Sequence record: PZ179883.1
DNA length: 64,000 nucleotides
Strand: one strand, 5' to 3'
Source: a phage
The stretch's first letter is position 1; every line of letters starts with the position of its first letter. The position numbers were made by a program, and so were the translations under genes. This document shows, piece after piece, positions 27,066 through 52,532 of this stretch. A model generated the notes under the pieces. That model saw only the letters and a program-made list of their open reading frames with translations, had not been told where the DNA came from and did no database searches.

Positions 27066-27069
27066 CAAT

Positions 27070-27097
27070 GGGGACCTTTCGGTCCCCATGTTTTTAT
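27070..27097 (+). terminator. terminator after gene 54
   Basis: GGGGACC-UUUC-GGUCCCC hairpin followed by a T-rich run. Confidence 0.75.
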
Positions 27098-27384
27098 TTA
27101 CGGAATGAAATAAAAGCAGCAACTGAAGCAACTAAACTGTCTTCAATATAAACTTCAATTTTTACCGGAGCTTCTGACTCAAATTTACCTGTTACTACAC
27201 CTTGGAAAATGCTTTCAGTCTGTTCTGGCTTTGAAAAATTTTCAGAAGGAAAAATTCCGAACTTTTTATCTGTTCCAAAAATTTTAATAAATTCATCGTA
27301 AACTGCTTCATTAAAAGCGTTATCAGCAGGAATAACGCCTTCAACTACAAGTTCTTGACCTAAAAAGCGCAAAGAAGATTTCAT
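27094..27384 (-). CDS. hypothetical protein downstream of the alt pair
   Basis: 96-aa ORF; SD GAGGA 8 nt upstream of ATG. Confidence 0.7.
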   Translation of the reverse strand: MKSSLRFLGQELVVEGVIPADNAFNEAVYDEFIKIFGTDKKFGIFPSENFSKPEQTESIFQGVVTGKFESEAPVKIEVYIEDSLVASVAAFISFRK

Positions 27385-27392
27385 TTTATGTT

Positions 27393-27445
27393 CCTCATGT
27401 TATGTCAGTAAGATTATTATAACACAACACGAGGGACTTGTAAAC
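27393..27445 (-). promoter_or_regulatory. early (sigma70-type) promoter with dyad symmetry, repeat copy 1
   Basis: Minus strand GTTTAC-17/18 nt-TATAAT; inverted repeat CCTCGTGTT/AACATGAGG flanks -10; 50 of 53 nt identical to 43043-43095. Confidence 0.6.
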
Positions 27446-29502
27446 TACATTTTGAACTTTTTAGACATTCCGTTGATATTAACCAAAGAAGCCAAGATTT
27501 GAGAAACTTCGTTTTCCTCTTCTTTTGATTCTTCTACAAGGAATTGGTTAAATCCAGTCATTGGACGAACTTCACCAGTTTCCATTAGATGGTCGCCATC
27601 ATATACCGATTCTTCTAATTGTTCAGAAGGAGGAACGATTGTGCCTTCGATTAGATACTTGTTATAAGCAGTTTCTTTCATCATGTACGTACTCACTTTA
27701 TTAATCTTCAGTAAAATTCCACGTGGTAGAATAACTTCAGCTTCTGACGGAAATCCTGATAAATGACCCGGAACGATAACTTTGATTCGCTCAGCTCCTT
27801 TAATTACCATACCCACGCTAGTTTCAGCATCTTCATTCGCATAAGCAGAGTGACTACCCATATGCATTAAATCTTCAGCATCAACTGAACCTTCTCCTTC
27901 ACCAGAAAATACTGCACCAGAATCATCTAGAGCCATATAGTTTTTACCATACTCACCGAAGATATTTGGTTTAAGCGATGTGGATACGAAGTTCTTGAAA
28001 TAGAACATTTTATTTTCAATATTATGACGTAAAGTTTTAAAGGTAACTTCTTGTCCACGGTAAAGCGTAGTTCCTGGAGGAAGAACTGATCCTTTGGCAA
28101 AGGCAGAATCCATTGTCTCGATGTGTTTAATAGCTCGTTCCATGTATTCTTCACGAGTAGAATCTGGTTTACCTAAAAGGAACGAGTTCATTTCAACATA
28201 TGAATCTGCGCAATAATCTTCAATTACATCAGACTCAGCCCGAGTTAATCCTTTTGGGGGTACTTCAGTACTTGCATATTCATACGCTTGAGAAGCAGAC
28301 TCATTAATCAATTTATACACGCCATTCATGACAAATTGAACAATAGCTACCTTTTCATCTGGCGTGGCTTTAGAACCTTTAACTAAATCATTGATAATTT
28401 TCTTAATAACATCAAAGCTATTAGAAATATTAATGTCAGCAAGATCGCTTAAAATTTTATCAGTTTTATAATCAAAAAATTCTTTATTCTTTAAATATTC
28501 TTGAGAACCTTGATATGTTATATCGCTCTGTAACTTGATAGATGGATCACGTAAACGTGCATGAGCCAATGCAATATGATTTCGGAAGCTTTCTAGTTCA
28601 TAATCGCTAGATTTAAAACGAGAAGCGCTTCTCATACCACCGATAGCTCCTTTGCTGAAGTTTGAACCAACCTGAATAACGCCAGAGTTCATTGGTCCTT
28701 CTGCTTTATATACCGGAACTTTAGATTCAAACTCTTGATATTTCTTAGCAGCGAAGCTATCACCCTGAAGTGAAGCATCGACAGTAGAATATTGAGCTTG
28801 TGCTGCTAATCGACGACTAATTTTAGTTTTCTGAATAACAGCTTGGTCCGTGCGCTTATCATTTTCTAAAGCAATAGAAGCAGCAACAGCAACAGCTTTA
28901 GGAACAGCATTACCTGTTTTAACATCTACATAAACATCACCAACCTTTGATTCAACTTTTGTGAATAACTCAGTTGAAATAGGAGGTACACCTGGAATGT
29001 CTTCTAAATTGGCATTTTTACGATAAACCATAATATATGCGTACTTTTTATCATAATCCCAGATTTCCTTTAAAAGAACATATCGACCTGCTCCTTTAGT
29101 ACGTACTAAACGGTCAGCAATAACTTGCATTTGACGAGCAGCGCCATTTGTTTTACTCTTTAGTACGCGGAATAAGCATGCATCAATTTTATACTGTTTC
29201 ATTGTTTGAAGAGCAGTATCAAAAACAGCGTTAATGACGCCAATTGGATTTCCACCCAAGTTTCTAAGTTTAACCAGTGATAATTTCTCGTTGACACCTA
29301 TCATTACGATATGCATCATTTTATCGCCCGGCTTAACGTTTTTATTTGTATCACCTCCAGAGGTGTATGTACAAAATCTAAATCCAGGAAGCACGCTTTC
29401 TTCGCCGGCTTGAATAGCAAAAATTTGAGGTATTTTATGCTTAGGATTTAAGTTAACAACCGGCGCCGAAGCGCCGTCAAATAATTCTGTAATAAGTTCC
29501 AT
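27445..29502 (-). CDS. Alt-like ADP-ribosyltransferase (second tandem paralog)
   Basis: 685 aa; N-terminus MELITELFD shared with Alt; conserved TLYRGQ, FVSTSL and EAEVILPRG motifs; central region divergent. Confidence 0.85.
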   Translation of the reverse strand: MELITELFDGASAPVVNLNPKHKIPQIFAIQAGEESVLPGFRFCTYTSGGDTNKNVKPGDKMMHIVMIGVNEKLSLVKLRNLGGNPIGVINAVFDTALQTMKQYKIDACLFRVLKSKTNGAARQMQVIADRLVRTKGAGRYVLLKEIWDYDKKYAYIMVYRKNANLEDIPGVPPISTELFTKVESKVGDVYVDVKTGNAVPKAVAVAASIALENDKRTDQAVIQKTKISRRLAAQAQYSTVDASLQGDSFAAKKYQEFESKVPVYKAEGPMNSGVIQVGSNFSKGAIGGMRSASRFKSSDYELESFRNHIALAHARLRDPSIKLQSDITYQGSQEYLKNKEFFDYKTDKILSDLADINISNSFDVIKKIINDLVKGSKATPDEKVAIVQFVMNGVYKLINESASQAYEYASTEVPPKGLTRAESDVIEDYCADSYVEMNSFLLGKPDSTREEYMERAIKHIETMDSAFAKGSVLPPGTTLYRGQEVTFKTLRHNIENKMFYFKNFVSTSLKPNIFGEYGKNYMALDDSGAVFSGEGEGSVDAEDLMHMGSHSAYANEDAETSVGMVIKGAERIKVIVPGHLSGFPSEAEVILPRGILLKINKVSTYMMKETAYNKYLIEGTIVPPSEQLEESVYDGDHLMETGEVRPMTGFNQFLVEESKEEENEVSQILASLVNINGMSKKFKM

Positions 29503-31577: not shown

Positions 31578-31585
31578 TATTTATA
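31578..31585 (-). promoter_or_regulatory. late promoter TATAAATA (minus strand) upstream of alt
   Basis: Exact TATAAATA on minus strand about 20 nt upstream of alt ATG. Confidence 0.65.
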
Positions 31586-35533: not shown

Positions 35534-35899
35534 TTAAATATCAAATTCGTTAAGAACTACATCAAAGATTGCTTCAAGATGCTCAGGTTTAGCTCTGTTA
35601 CTCAGAATATGACGAATCCAAGTTTTAACCAGAAGCTTGCGATTAACACCATTCCAGCAAGGATGAGTCCCTAAATCGCGTTGACGAAAATCATCATCTA
35701 AAGCGATTTTGAAGTTGGAACCTTCCATTGTGATTGAAACCGTGATGCCATTTTCAAATCGTATATAAACGTAGTTAGGAGTCATATACTGTTCAATTTC
35801 GCATACTGATCCATTTTGATGTTTCCAAAGGCAGATAGTATCAATAGAACCTGCAATACCGTTAGAAACATATTTACGTTCAAAGTTGATGTAGTTCAT
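35534..35899 (-). CDS. hypothetical protein (30.x)
   Basis: 121-aa ORF with GGAG RBS. Confidence 0.65.
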   Translation of the reverse strand: MNYINFERKYVSNGIAGSIDTICLWKHQNGSVCEIEQYMTPNYVYIRFENGITVSITMEGSNFKIALDDDFRQRDLGTHPCWNGVNRKLLVKTWIRHILSNRAKPEHLEAIFDVVLNEFDI

Positions 35900-35925
35900 T
35901 TTTATTCTCCGAGATGTTTAATTGC

Positions 35926-35965
35926 GGTACAGGTATATAATATCATATCCTGTACCAAAGTAAAC
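35926..35965 (-). promoter_or_regulatory. early promoter with dyad symmetry (family B, copy 1)
   Basis: Minus strand GTTTAC-17 nt-TATTAT; 8-bp inverted repeat GGTACAGG/CCTGTACC encloses -10. Confidence 0.55.
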
Positions 35966-35967
35966 AA

Positions 35968-36300
35968 TTATTTTACTACTTTCCAGTGCTGCATGTCAAG
36001 TTTGCCAACTTTTTTCATCTTCTCAATTAAGCGTTCTGCACGTTGGCGAGCTGTAACATAATACCATTCACCTAATTCATTTTGTTCAATTTTTCCAACG
36101 ATTACTGTATTCAATTCATAAATCCAACCAGTAAAGAAATTATGAACTTGAATTGTAAAGGTGAAATCTGTTCCCATACCTTCTGTTGTTTCTACTTCAA
36201 TAATATCACCTTCAACTGCCATTAAGAACCACATAGTTTCATCATATTTACCATTGAAACATTTAGTTTTAATTGTAGCGTTCAGATTAATCGTTTTCAT
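35968..36300 (-). CDS. hypothetical protein (30.x)
   Basis: 110-aa ORF. Confidence 0.65.
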   Translation of the reverse strand: MKTINLNATIKTKCFNGKYDETMWFLMAVEGDIIEVETTEGMGTDFTFTIQVHNFFTGWIYELNTVIVGKIEQNELGEWYYVTARQRAERLIEKMKKVGKLDMQHWKVVK

Positions 36301-36373
36301 TTTATTCTCCTTTGTTTGTGTAAGATAATACTATCACAAAGGAACCACACTGTAAACAACTTTGTGCAATCTT

Positions 36374-38957: not shown

Positions 38958-39190
38958 AGTACGCCATACACCCTTTGTGCTTCAACTAATCCATCAAAAT
39001 CCAGTTTAAGATGTGTTATTTGGTCACCATCACCTGGATTCACAATTACTAATACTGAACGAGGAGTTTCGGTAATAACACGAACCGACGTTTCAGGAAA
39101 TCGTTCAGAAACCTTATTTACCAATTCTTGAGCAAATAGTTTAACTTTTTCTTGGAATTCTTTAACAGTAATTGGTTTTTCGCTTAGCAT
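38954..39190 (-). CDS. hypothetical protein (cd.x)
   Basis: 78-aa ORF. Confidence 0.6.
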   Translation of the reverse strand: MLSEKPITVKEFQEKVKLFAQELVNKVSERFPETSVRVITETPRSVLVIVNPGDGDQITHLKLDFDGLVEAQRVYGVL

Positions 39191-39711
39191 GTTGATCCTA
39201 GCTCCTTACTTTCAACGTTTTTAACTAATTTGACAGAAACTAATTCAGCATCTTGGGTAATCATTACCGGGCCTTCTTCATACTCTTCAAGATATTCTAG
39301 AGCTTTCTTTTTAGCTTCTTCCTTCGTATCAGTTTGAGCATAGATATAAAACATACAACCAGTAATACCTACTACTTTCCACTTAATTTCTTTATCAGTT
39401 TTAATTTCAAATTTACTGATAGAGTCATCTTTTTGAACTTCTTCGAAAAAATAATATTCTGACATATAAGTAATTGAAAATAGCGGGCTATCTTTATAAG
39501 ATTCGCCCATTACATCAACAGCTTTATACCAGCAATCGTCAATTTCGCGTTTAATGCTAATAACATTTTTCGCAGGATCTATTTTTACTTTAAATGAATT
39601 TTCCCCAATAAACTGAGCAATTCGTTTATTAGCCCCGCAAGTTTCATTAAAAATATCTTTATATCCAGCTTTAAAGCGATAAACCTTATCTTCTTCAAAC
39701 CATTCGCTCAT
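39184..39711 (-). CDS. hypothetical protein (cd.x)
   Basis: 175-aa ORF with GAGG RBS. Confidence 0.7.
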   Translation of the reverse strand: MSEWFEEDKVYRFKAGYKDIFNETCGANKRIAQFIGENSFKVKIDPAKNVISIKREIDDCWYKAVDVMGESYKDSPLFSITYMSEYYFFEEVQKDDSISKFEIKTDKEIKWKVVGITGCMFYIYAQTDTKEEAKKKALEYLEEYEEGPVMITQDAELVSVKLVKNVESKELGSTC

Positions 39712-39735
39712 TTCAATTTCCTCATTTGTTTTGGT

Positions 39736-39774
39736 AGAGCTATAATATCACAACTCTACCGTAAAGTAAACTAT
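39736..39774 (-). promoter_or_regulatory. early promoter with dyad symmetry (family B, copy 2)
   Basis: Minus strand GTTTAC-18 nt-TATTAT; inverted repeat GGTAGAG/CTCTACC encloses -10; loop shares TGATATTATA with copy 1. Confidence 0.55.
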
Positions 39775-42190: not shown

Positions 42191-42540
42191 TTAGAAAGGT
42201 CCTGGATGTCTTCTGCGAACTTGTTGAAGGAGTTATTGATTTGTTTTTCAACCAATCCTGGCTTATGAGCCACCACATCCGCCTTCTTTGCATCTTTGCG
42301 CAGTTTTTCATTTTCACGCTCAATAGCAGCAATTGCCTCACGATTTTTATTATTCATCGCATCAATATAATTATACTGAATTCGCAAATTATCTAATGCT
42401 AAAGCGTTTTCATTGGCCGTTTTTGTAATTTCAGTAACCGATGTTTCTAATCTTTCTACCTTATTTTTTAAAATAATAGATGTTCCGCCAAATGCTATTA
42501 CAAGTAATAGCAATCCAGCTGTAAAATTACTTACATGCAT
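42187..42540 (-). CDS. i-spanin candidate (Rz equivalent): N-terminal TM helix plus coiled-coil
   Basis: Hydrophobic segment AGLLLLVIAFGG near N-terminus then charged helical region; 117 aa. Confidence 0.7.
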   Translation of the reverse strand: MHVSNFTAGLLLLVIAFGGTSIILKNKVERLETSVTEITKTANENALALDNLRIQYNYIDAMNNKNREAIAAIERENEKLRKDAKKADVVAHKPGLVEKQINNSFNKFAEDIQDLSK

Positions 42541-43034
42541 AAAGTTTTAATAACCTCTACAATATCGTCTTGAGAAAGACCGTTAATTAAAATATGATGT
42601 TCAGCTGGAGATTTAGAAATTTTAAAGCATGCCTCAACATCTTCTGCCATATCCGATGCGCTACGATTTGGATTGCTAATTCCAAGACGATGTTTTCCCG
42701 TCAAAGGATTAACGATGATGTAGCATTTACAGCTATTAATGTGAACATTAGGTTGAGTCTGATTAATGAATACTTCGCAATCATATTTCGCAAGCTGATT
42801 TTCTAAAAAGACTTTCATCTCCTCAACCGCATCAGGAAGCATATCACGGGCTTGCTCAAGACGACGATTTCGATATTCTTTAATGGTCGTTTTCCGCTTG
42901 ACTTGCTTAGCTAAATCTTTCTTAAGATCGGTGATATATCCAACTCGACGATTTCCTTTAAATACAGAAATCCCATCTGTAGTATCACCATATGCTTCAA
43001 CGACCATTTCAGTAGTAATAAGCTGTAAATCCAT
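42531..43034 (-). CDS. alc: Alc, inhibitor of host transcription elongation
   Basis: 167 aa from MDLQLITTE; matches T4 Alc. Confidence 0.93.
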   Translation of the reverse strand: MDLQLITTEMVVEAYGDTTDGISVFKGNRRVGYITDLKKDLAKQVKRKTTIKEYRNRRLEQARDMLPDAVEEMKVFLENQLAKYDCEVFINQTQPNVHINSCKCYIIVNPLTGKHRLGISNPNRSASDMAEDVEACFKISKSPAEHHILINGLSQDDIVEVIKTLCM

Positions 43035-43042
43035 CATAAAGC

Positions 43043-43095
43043 CCTCATGTTATGTCAGTAAGTCTACTATAACACAACACGAGGGACTTGTAAAC
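43043..43095 (-). promoter_or_regulatory. early promoter with dyad symmetry, repeat copy 2
   Basis: Minus strand GTTTAC-17/18 nt-TATAGT; same inverted repeat as copy 1; 3' arm contains the alc SD. Confidence 0.6.
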
Positions 43096-43097
43096 AG

Positions 43098-44685
<1,588 letters not shown>

Positions 44686-49067: not shown

Positions 49068-50083
49068 CATTATGTTCAGATAAGGTCGTTAATCTTACCC
49101 CGGAATTATATCCAGCTGCATGTCACCATACAGATCAGACTATATCTCCATCTTGATGAAGCAAGATGTCTATCGTTTCGAGTCACTTGACCCTACTCCC
49201 CAAAGGGATAGTCGTTAGGCATTTATGTAGAACCAATTCCATTTATCAGATTTTACACGATAAGTAACTAATCCAGACGAAATTTTAAAATGTCTAGCTG
49301 CATCTGCTGCACAATCAAAAATAACCCCATCACATGAAATCTTTTTAATATTACTAGGCTTTTTACCTTTCATCTTTTCTGATATTTTAGATTTAGTTAT
49401 GTCTGAATGCTTATGATTAAAGAATGAATTATTTTCACCTGAACGATTTCTGCATTTACTACAAGTATAAGCAGAAGTTTGTATGCGAACACCGCACTTA
49501 CAAAACTTATGGGTTTCTGGATTCCAACGCCCGTTTTTACTTCCGGGTTTACTGTAAAGAGCTTTCCGACCATCAGGTCCAAGTTTAAGCATCTTAGCTT
49601 TAACAGTTTCAGAACGTTTCTTAATAATTTCTTCTTTTAATGGATGCGTAGAACATGTATCACCAAACGTTGCATCAGCAATATTGTATCCATTAATTTT
49701 AGAATTAAGCTCTTTAATCCAAAAATTTTCTCGTTCAATAATCAAATCTTTCTCATATGGAATTTCTTCCAAAATAGAACATTCAAACACATTACCATGT
49801 TTGTTAAAAGACCTCTGAAGCTTTATAGAAGAATGGCATCCTTTTTCTAAATCTTTAAAATGCCTCTTCCATCTCTTTTCAAAATCTTTAGCACTTCCTA
49901 CATATACTTTATTGTTTAAAGTATTTTTAATCTGATAAATTCCGCTTTTCATAAATACCTCTTTAAATATAGAAGTATTTATTAAAGGGCAGTCCTACAA
50001 TTTAGCACGGGATTGTCTACTAGAGAGGTCCCCCGTTTAGATAGATTACAAGTATAAGTCACCTTATACTCAGGCCTCAATTA
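49068..50083 (-). mobile_element. group I self-splicing intron of td (1016 nt)
   Basis: 5' end UAAUUGAGGCCUGAGUAUAAGGUGACUUAUACUUG... and 3' end ...CUGAACAUAAUG match the recalled T4 td intron; exon 1 ends in U, intron ends in G. Confidence 0.92.
49215..49952 (-). CDS. I-TevI GIY-YIG homing endonuclease (intron-encoded)
   Basis: 245 aa; GIYQIKN...VYVGSA motif; matches I-TevI. Confidence 0.95.
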   Translation of the reverse strand: MKSGIYQIKNTLNNKVYVGSAKDFEKRWKRHFKDLEKGCHSSIKLQRSFNKHGNVFECSILEEIPYEKDLIIERENFWIKELNSKINGYNIADATFGDTCSTHPLKEEIIKKRSETVKAKMLKLGPDGRKALYSKPGSKNGRWNPETHKFCKCGVRIQTSAYTCSKCRNRSGENNSFFNHKHSDITKSKISEKMKGKKPSNIKKISCDGVIFDCAADAARHFKISSGLVTYRVKSDKWNWFYINA

Positions 50084-51219
<1,136 letters not shown>

Positions 51220-51519
51220 TCAAACAGACTTTTTCACAATTTTCCAATCAGCTTTAAACTGTTCAACGTCAGAATGATAAATCCAGAATCCTGCGCTTTC
51301 TCCATCCTCATAAAGAGGGCATCCATCGCATTCATCTTCCCATCCCATATCACGTAAAAGATGTTCGGCTTTTTCAACGAGATCAGAATCTTTACCGATG
51401 ATATTAAAATACCATTTACCTTTAACTTCTGAATCTTTGATGCTCTGACGTTGTAATCTCATTTTATTCTCCTTAGTTGATAAGGCTATAGTATCACTAC
51501 CATAGCCCGTTGTAAACAA
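51220..51519 (-). CDS. hypothetical protein (frd.x)
   Basis: 99-aa ORF. Confidence 0.65.
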   Translation of the reverse strand: MFTTGYGSDTIALSTKENKMRLQRQSIKDSEVKGKWYFNIIGKDSDLVEKAEHLLRDMGWEDECDGCPLYEDGESAGFWIYHSDVEQFKADWKIVKKSV

Positions 51520-52213: not shown

Positions 52214-52462
52214 TTATTGTTCGATCAGTCCCATGTAAAATTCTGCGTCTTCAGCATCCATACCATCACAATATTCATTAGCCATAAAGCGGGTGAGGTC
52301 TTCAAGAGGACCTTCAATAACGATTTGAATGCTCCAAAACTTAGAATCTTGTACGCTTGTGATACTAAGTTCAGGATAACGATTACGAATAATTTCTTCA
52401 ATATATTCAAAATCAACGATGTCAATATCAACTTTAGCCATATTATTTTCCTCTTTAATCAT
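52214..52462 (-). CDS. hypothetical acidic protein upstream of frd cluster
   Basis: 82-aa ORF. Confidence 0.55.
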
Positions 52463-52532
52463 CAGCAGTATTGCCGATAGTTGTATAGTACCATAGAAGA
52501 ACAGAGATGTAAACAGTTTTGTGAAAAATTTT

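Follow-up and report, generated by a model that had tools for sequence, protein, structure and literature searches.

Two themes known from T4 and its relatives bring a promoter and an RNA hairpin together. PeSL cassettes are intergenic units, repeated within a genome, in which a sigma-70-type early promoter is joined, together with a stem-loop, to the Shine-Dalgarno sequence and ATG of the gene that follows (Arbiol et al., 2010, PMC2839356; Comeau et al., 2014, PMC4122927). In the promoter-in-hairpin gates of the T4 genes e, soc, 49, and I-TevI, the Shine-Dalgarno sequence is buried in long transcripts, and RNAs from an internal promoter, which lack the 5' strand of the hairpin, are translated (Uzan & Miller, 2010, PMC3014915). 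Here we analyze computationally a 53-nt cassette that occurs twice in a 64,000-nt stretch of phage DNA (record PZ179883.1; the whole stretch is called the window below), upstream of the genes alt.-3 and alc. The cassette joins both themes, as it has the anatomy of an early promoter and its promoter spacer is complementary to a leader that ends in the downstream gene's ribosome-binding site. It is best filed as an undescribed variant of these known elements, and not as a new kind of element.

The cassette belongs to the PeSL class (PMC2839356, PMC4122927), a membership omitted from the original prediction, which was made from the sequence of the window and had compared the element with e, soc, and I-TevI. 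Its stem is placed differently from those of the described members. PeSL stem-loops have been published in the upstream AT-rich region, over the -35, between -35 and -10, over the -10, and just before +1, and none of them runs from the spacer to the Shine-Dalgarno sequence; the stem described here spans the spacer, the -10, and +1 up to the Shine-Dalgarno sequence, and thus lies outside the five positions given in PMC2839356. [quoted passage not shown] The role proposed for PeSLs is termination or attenuation (the words translation, ribosome, and sequester are absent from Arbiol et al., 2010), and they have also been proposed as portable units for modular shuffling and as recombination substrates (PMC2839356, PMC4122927). 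Recombination of copies (indels, mini-circles) and clustering in hyperplastic regions are also part of how PeSLs are described. The present cassette differs from them in that just two near-identical copies exist; they lie 15.6 kb from each other, within a conserved region, and show no sign of having been shuffled.

The comparison with e, soc, and I-TevI holds for the logic of sequestration, but the cassettes are a mirror image of these genes. The e, soc, 49, and I-TevI hairpins contain a late promoter (gp55, TATAAATA; PMC3014915), and the gate delays translation to late times, whereas the early sigma-70 promoter of the cassettes would confine translation to the immediate-early burst. A motif search found TATAAATA in neither cassette.

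Two near-identical promoter cassettes precede alt.-3 and alc

The flanks of both copies are 90-100% identical to sequences of about 500 Tequatrovirus (T4-like) genomes, among which the Shigella phages SF2-1 and CT01 come nearest; the window is Tequatrovirus DNA. Copy 1 (27393-27445, minus strand) lies upstream of alt.-3 and copy 2 (43043-43095, minus strand) upstream of alc. Each extends from the -35 through the Shine-Dalgarno sequence, and the same cassette is found at the alt.-3 and alc loci of T4. The two copies, 15.6 kb apart, are identical at 50 of 53 positions, and a search of the window allowing up to three mismatches returned these two matches only, with an expectation of 0 from shuffled sequences. 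The original prediction placed the differences within five central positions, and indeed they are at positions 29, 32, and 33 of the repeat (27417, 27414, and 27413 in copy 1; 43067, 43064, and 43063 in copy 2). All three fall in the loop of the hairpin, and one of them turns TATAAT into TATAGT. The edges of the repeat are sharp: its first base is the G of GTTTAC, its last base is the end of GAGG, and the sequences on either side are unrelated. The observation is confirmed and is stronger than it had been described.

Both cassettes are situated between the stop codon of an upstream gene and the ATG of a downstream gene, whose Shine-Dalgarno sequence forms the last 4 nt of the repeat. The gene downstream of copy 1 is the alt.-3 homologue (27094-27384, minus strand; 96 amino acids, Pfam DUF5498), and the gene upstream encodes an Alt-like ADP-ribosyltransferase paralogue (27445-29502, minus strand; 685 amino acids), the TAG stop codon of which (27445-27447) shares its last base with the first G of the copy 1 GTTTAC. 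Copy 2 is followed by alc (42531-43037, minus strand; Pfam ALC), which encodes an inhibitor of host transcription, and is preceded by rnlA (43098-44258, minus strand), encoding RNA ligase 1, with the rnlA stop codon 2 nt ahead of the copy 2 -35. These two upstream genes are the proposed sources of read-through transcripts. The Alt-like paralogue is a full-length second ADP-ribosyltransferase of this type (Pfam ADPrib_exo_Tox); its T4 counterpart consists of the decayed alt.-1/alt.-2 remnants of an alt duplication only.

On the minus strand both copies read GTTTAC, an 18-nt spacer (17 nt if the -35 is taken as TTTACA), and then TATAAT in copy 1 or TATAGT in copy 2. The copy 1 -35 is at 27440-27445 (by sequence, promoter scan, and the table of open reading frames, ORFs) and its -10, which lies partly at the stem's top and partly in the loop, at 27416-27421; the copy 2 -10 is at 43066-43071 (all minus strand). 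The match to the sigma-70 consensus is 11/12 for TTTACA-17-TATAAT and 10/12 for TTTACA-17-TATAGT, both promoters have a TG extended -10, and the sequence upstream is A-rich. Both are among the best sigma-70 matches of an 18-kb scan (26.5-44.5 kb). Promoter geometry predicts transcription to start at the A of CTTAC, a motif conserved in other early cassettes too. This A is at 27409 (minus strand) in copy 1, which is 7 nt past the -10, in the loop and 2 nt before the 3' arm of the hairpin, and at 43059 (minus strand) in copy 2.

By their anatomy, both copies are predicted to be strong T4-type early promoters. They resemble the T4 early ('uber' UP/-35/TGn/-10) promoters (Hinton, 2010, PMC2988021; Nolan et al., 2006, PMC1524935) in the GTTTAC -35, the GT-rich/TG extended -10, the TAnnnT, and the A start in CTTAC. 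The early promoter consensus leaves the spacer and the leader unspecified, however, and both the 50/53 identity of the cassettes and the complementarity between their spacer and leader exceed it. The promoter scan and the gene identities bear out the proposal of an early promoter directly upstream of alt.-3, first noted as a 96-aa ORF, and of alc, and the product of alc is known as immediate-early (PMC2988021). Primers for quantitative PCR on alc have been used in the validation of candidate NAD-capped transcripts (bioRxiv 10.1101/2024.04.04.588121), which at best hints at a +1A primary end close to alc.

The promoter spacer is predicted to pair with the Shine-Dalgarno region

The RNA of each cassette is predicted to fold into a hairpin with a contiguous stem of 15 pairs in copy 1 (CCUCGUGUUGUGUUA/UGACAUAACAUGAGG) and 16 pairs in copy 2 (CCCUCGUGUUGUGUUA/UGACAUAACAUGAGGG), including three G.U pairs. 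The pairing of CCUCGUGUU with AACAUGAGG that had been reported exists, but it is merely the outer part of this stem, which has 15-16 contiguous pairs and not nine. In copy 1, the 5' arm (27420-27434, minus strand) is the anti-Shine-Dalgarno strand, which is located in the promoter spacer and extends two bases into the -10; the last four bases (27393-27396) of the 3' arm (27393-27407, minus strand) are the GAGG ribosome-binding site of alt.-3. In copy 2, the 5' arm (43070-43085, minus strand) lies in the promoter spacer, and the 3' arm (43042-43057, minus strand) includes the alc GAGG ribosome-binding site at 43043-43046. The proposal that the 3' arm takes in the GAGG of the downstream gene is thus borne out by the fold of both copies. 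The 12-nt loop holds the remainder of the -10 and the predicted start, and the 3' arm begins two bases past the A at which transcription is predicted to begin. With +1 in the loop, a promoter-proximal transcript from either copy would lack the entire 5' arm.

The minimum-energy folds in context contain 20-22 pairs, the extra pairs being in the loop and at the base, and have energies of -21.4 and -26.5 kcal/mol. Contexts of 101 nt reach -22.3 kcal/mol (z = -3.7) in copy 1 and -35.1 kcal/mol (z = -5.4) in copy 2, and none of 200 shuffles was as stable. Promoter-proximal 44-mers fold at about -3 kcal/mol, with z about 0. The fold of the sense strand is more stable than that of the antisense strand by 5-9 kcal/mol (three G.U pairs), which argues for a structure of the coding-strand RNA rather than a DNA palindrome. 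Rfam at the gathering threshold gave no matches anywhere in the 64-kb window.

Copy 2 has a possible outer helix, in which AGCUGU of the rnlA stop region would pair with ACAGCU of alc codons 4-6 (43094-43100 with 43018-43026, minus strand) and so enclose the alc start codon. The T4 version of this helix reads AGUUGU/ACAACU, a double change from C-G to U-A, and the same pair is a C.A mismatch in two contigs, one from IMG/VR (L020) and one from a metagenome (L035).

Read-through RNA is predicted to hide the ribosome-binding sites

The cost of opening a ribosome-binding site was calculated as the free energy required to hold the RNA unpaired from 14 nt ahead of the AUG to the end of the AUG itself. 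Read-through RNA included 60 nt upstream of the cassette, and proximal RNA began at the predicted +1. For alc, opening costs 20.0 kcal/mol in read-through RNA versus 3.8 kcal/mol in proximal RNA, and for alt.-3 the values are 14.5 versus 2.2 kcal/mol, giving a difference between the two RNA types of 12-16 kcal/mol. The unpaired probability of the Shine-Dalgarno sequence in read-through RNA is 0.00. Folding of both RNA types thus supports, at the level of prediction, the claim that a read-through transcript hides the ribosome-binding site and a proximal one leaves it free.

Among the 39 minus-strand gene starts with a Shine-Dalgarno sequence and ATG in the window, alc and alt.-3 rank first and second. 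The third rank is held by the I-TevI start at 49952, with 14.4 kcal/mol against the 14.5 and 20.0 kcal/mol of the cassettes. The I-TevI ribosome-binding site is experimentally established as sequestered (PMC3014915), and the opening-cost metric therefore recovers a known positive. The protein encoded by the I-TevI ORF (about 49952, minus strand) is 100% identical to that of T4, so that a td intron is expected at this place; the Rfam scan at the gathering threshold reported no group I intron.

Spacer-leader complementarity recurs upstream of alc in other genera

We compared the region upstream of alc from 13 other genomes, located by tblastn with Alc. The same layout is present in the rnlA-alc spacer of about 60 nt in Gelderlandvirus, Karamvirus, Klebsiella phage Roth80, Dhakavirus, Roskildevirus, Bragavirus, Winklervirus, and Kanagawavirus CIP9: GTTTACA is followed by a 5' arm in the promoter spacer, the -10 is in the loop, and the 3' arm ends in GGAG, GAGG, or GGGG. 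The sequences of the arms vary by lineage (UCUCCGUUUAGUU/AACUAAACGGAGA, UCCUCAUUUCGUU/AACGAAAUGAGGA, and AACCUCUCAUUUUUA/UGAAAAUGAGAGGUU), and there are double changes in register, as between UCUCCUCAU/AUGAGGAGA in Dhakavirus and UCUCCUCAG/CUGAGGAGA in Roskildevirus.

MAFFT alignment and RNAalifold on ten cassettes returned no consensus structure because the arms are out of alignment register, and a matrix of self and non-self duplexes together with a permutation was used instead. Duplexes between a spacer and the leader of its own lineage have a mean energy of -19.4 kcal/mol, those between lineages -10.4 kcal/mol, and in 9 of 10 cases a leader pairs best with the spacer of its own lineage. 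When the spacers were permuted among nine lineages, the observed sum was reached in none of 100,000 permutations (-172.8 vs -101.0 +/- 11.6). The complementarity is therefore specific to the lineage and goes beyond the shared anti-Shine-Dalgarno. Together these comparisons indicate that the spacer-leader pairing upstream of alc is under selection.

Acinetobacter phage Ac42 has a different gene order, and in Gaprivervirus an extra ORF lies between rnlA and alc. In Gaprivervirus VR25 (L006, 89-160) this ORF of 77 amino acids comes after a GGGG...CCCC stem and a T-rich run that resemble a PeSL or terminator of the RB49 type, and alc is without a promoter of its own.

By its distribution, the long Shine-Dalgarno-occluding layout is ancestral at alc, whereas at alt.-3 it is specific to Tequatrovirus. 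The fewest steps are needed if the genus ancestor gained the alt.-3 cassette as a copy of the alc module, and the alt.-3 copy is thus probably a transplant confined to Tequatrovirus. Sequence identity is uninformative about the direction of copying, as the T4 cassette is about 62-72% identical to the outgroup cassettes at the alc and alt.-3 loci alike, and we infer the direction from architecture only. At alt.-3, six other genera have a small conserved palindromic hairpin in the promoter spacer, such as CCACAUGGAUGUGG or GCACAUGGAAGUGUGU, about 30-60 nt upstream of the gene (L011-L016, locus positions ~240-300).

Stem variants and recombination within Tequatrovirus

Further copies were sought by blastn with the 53-mer, which hit 999 places in 500 phage records. 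Every hit had at least 90% identity and belonged to Tequatrovirus, and the total corresponds to two copies in all records but one. T4 (NC_000866) carries both, at 123041-123093 and 136284-136336, and its copies differ at one base. The same two loci are occupied in every genome read.

Viral and metagenome contigs and T4 together provide nine stem variants at eight positions, small numbers that all but once point in the same direction. Eight of the nine keep or create a pair: changes of C to U and A to G give G.U pairs, a G to A change turns G.U into A-U, and one C to U adds a U-A pair at the stem base. The ninth, a C to A change, breaks the outermost pair.

The copies had also been put forward as potential substrates for recombination with each other, and 53 nt is about the length of homology that T4 recombination can use (Singer, 1982, cited in PMC2839356). 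We found no supporting evidence for such events, given two copies in all but one record, constant loci, and no rearrangement between the copies in any genome read. Essential genes lie between the copies; a deletion would remove genes 30 and 31, and a 15.6-kb duplication would exceed the headful capacity. The alleles appear locus-specific in about 12 genomes with paired or assignable copies, although so few genomes could miss a conversion event now and then. Of the exchanges considered, gene conversion on occasion is the only plausible one.

Proposed function of the cassettes

We lean, if only slightly, towards reading the element as an "immediate-early-only" translational gate built into a PeSL-type cassette. 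A transcript that enters from the upstream gene would carry both arms, and its hairpin would bury the ribosome-binding site. RNA from the cassette's own promoter would begin in the loop, two bases before the 3' arm, and in the absence of the 5' arm its ribosome-binding site would be open. The 5' arm would thus be an anti-Shine-Dalgarno written into the promoter spacer, the one part of the promoter that is largely free in sequence, and this placement would guarantee that the arm lies upstream of +1. Alc and Alt.-3 would then be translated mainly from the immediate-early burst, and not from the later long rnlA transcripts or the late alt transcripts. The upstream stop codons are at the -35 or 2 nt before it, and the scan found no terminator-like site between the upstream genes and either cassette; rnlA and alt-gene transcripts should therefore enter the cassettes. 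A motif search located the late promoter motif TATAAATA upstream of alt (31578-31585, minus strand), the likely source of late read-through into copy 1, and alt has been reported as a late gene in T4 (PMC9697503).

Several points weigh against such a gate. The start sites of both copies are predictions from promoter geometry. In proximal RNA of copy 1, a weak alternative fold holds the Shine-Dalgarno sequence in a mostly paired state (unpaired probability 0.10), but the cost of opening is still only the 2.2 kcal/mol given above. At alc, the promoter hairpin of Mosigvirus, Tegunavirus, and Kanagawavirus PEi20 is placed within the spacer or across the -10 and does not take in the Shine-Dalgarno sequence, which is free. 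The alt.-3 promoter of Dhaka-, Gapriver-, Mosig-, Marfa-, Karam-, and Gelderlandvirus likewise has a small in-spacer hairpin only, with a free Shine-Dalgarno sequence, and within the window the hairpins at the promoters of frd.1, 30.7, and the ORF at 39184-39711 reach over the -10 but not to the Shine-Dalgarno sequence, which stays free. Promoter-embedded hairpins that do not occlude a ribosome-binding site may have another primary role, such as termination, insulation, or RNA stability, and their breadth is the chief caveat to the gate. In addition, the Shine-Dalgarno sequence itself forces part of the complementarity (CCUC/GAGG) in any design of this kind, and the hairpin might be melted in part by ribosomes that terminate at the upstream stop codon, which is 11-12 nt ahead of the stem.

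A PeSL-type insulator would use the stem-loop to attenuate or terminate incoming upstream transcription and the promoter to restart it, and the pairing with the Shine-Dalgarno sequence would be incidental. The cassette fits the PeSL description, with an early promoter, a stem-loop, and a 3' Shine-Dalgarno sequence between stop codon and ATG (PMC2839356), many early promoters of the window place the 5' arm of a hairpin in the spacer, both where the hairpin includes the Shine-Dalgarno sequence and where it does not, and one RB49 stem-loop cut the expression of a downstream lacZ as strongly as the rrnB T1 terminator. Yet the stem is not followed by a U-run, the tails being AACAUAAAAUG in copy 1, CUUUAUGAUG in copy 2, and A-rich in other genera; the terminator scan passes over both cassettes but picks up the true terminator at 27068-27089; and termination leaves unexplained that the 3' arm tracks the Shine-Dalgarno sequence in nine lineages. 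We consider an insulator unlikely for these reasons. The narrower reading of the cassettes as intrinsic (Rho-independent) terminators, with which they share a stable hairpin at the end of a gene, was rejected, as they have no U-tract, are not called by the consensus scan, and carry an A-rich tail in most lineages. The position of the stem exactly at gene boundaries, its length, and its specificity to the sense-strand RNA would also suit an element of RNA processing or stability, such as an RNase III-like cleavage site, a 3'-protective hairpin, or a shield of AU-rich promoter sequence from RNase E, and extensive processing of T4 mRNA is known (PMC3014915). Such a role seems quite improbable to us, however: nothing specific speaks for it, with no Rfam family and no known RNase III site reported here, a stem of 15-16 pairs is short for RNase III, and neither the predicted +1 just before the 3' arm nor the end of this arm at the Shine-Dalgarno sequence would be explained.

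The repeat could also work as DNA, as a protein operator, a cruciform, or a recombination hotspot, its copies being kept alike by gene conversion and serving modular shuffling. A length close to the homology that T4 recombination can use (Singer, 1982, cited in PMC2839356), the sharp boundaries, the transplanted look of the alt.-3 copy, and the recombination between PeSLs demonstrated in RB49/phi1 (PMC2839356) agree with this. On the other strand, however, the three G.U pairs are C.A mismatches and the fold is weaker by the 5-9 kcal/mol noted above, and the allele patterns are locus-specific and not homogenised within genomes (the window; contig pair L019/L022). The constant two copies in all but one of 500 records, the intact arrangement of the genomes read, the loss of genes 30 and 31 on deletion, and a duplication beyond headful capacity also argue against it, and we judge a DNA-level element to be very improbable. 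That the similarity merely reflects the generic T4 early-promoter consensus with a common Shine-Dalgarno sequence, or chance, is hardly credible. It is true that GTTTAC, a GT-rich stretch before the -10, TAnnnT, CTTAC at +1, and (A)UGAGGA are common to many T-even early promoters (PMC1524935), but the other pairs among the eight GTTTAC-type minus-strand promoters of the window share 15-35 of 53 positions (mean 24.6) against 50 of 53 here, shuffles give 0 matches, and the identity includes the non-consensus spacer and leader. This explanation had been named beforehand as one that would refute the original prediction, and the pairwise comparison of the eight promoters rejects it.

Beyond a gate at these two loci, we put forward tentatively that the spacer-embedded anti-Shine-Dalgarno might be a conserved general device by which T4-like phages translate a gene only from its own immediate-early transcript. 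It would have been kept at alc in at least nine genus-level lineages despite the turnover of the arms, would also be present at 30.8 and frd.3, and in Tequatrovirus would have moved as a whole module to alt.-3, downstream of late-transcribed genes. If this is true, it would be a simple and portable way of confining a protein to the first minutes of infection while its coding sequence stays transcribed in longer RNAs. PeSL stem-loops would gain a translational role beside the proposed terminator role, and a part of about 55 nt that couples the promoter of origin to translation would become available to synthetic biology. T4 is the reference system for timed phage gene expression, and paired transcriptome and proteome work has reported T4 mRNAs and proteins uncoupled in time, by mechanisms that are largely unassigned (PMC9697503). 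The cassettes are present in T4 itself, and the idea is therefore directly testable with existing mutagenesis tools and public differential RNA sequencing data (GSE255091).

Other promoter hairpins and a likely terminator in the window

Two further cassettes of the window appear to be weaker versions of the same design. In both the 30.8 cassette (36300-36357, minus strand) and the frd.3 cassette (52441-52514, minus strand), the spacer pairs with the downstream Shine-Dalgarno sequence, and opening costs are 9.2 versus 0.5 kcal/mol for 30.8 and 5.8 versus 1.8 kcal/mol for frd.3. Strong hairpins of the classic PeSL-like layout, with the 5' arm in the spacer and the 3' arm over the -10, precede frd.1 (51462-51517), an ORF of 175 amino acids (39711-39771), and 30.7 (35899-35965; all minus strand). 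The 175-aa ORF itself (39184-39711, minus strand) immediately follows the cd.3 homologue, gave no tblastn match to the 105-150 kb region of T4, and looks like a cassette-flanked insertion; at its site the T4 record carries a note on an early promoter between cd.2 and cd.3.

Between the convergent gene 54 and alt.-3, a perfect 9-bp GC-rich hairpin with T-runs on either side is found at 27068-27089 (both strands), which looks like a bidirectional intrinsic terminator.

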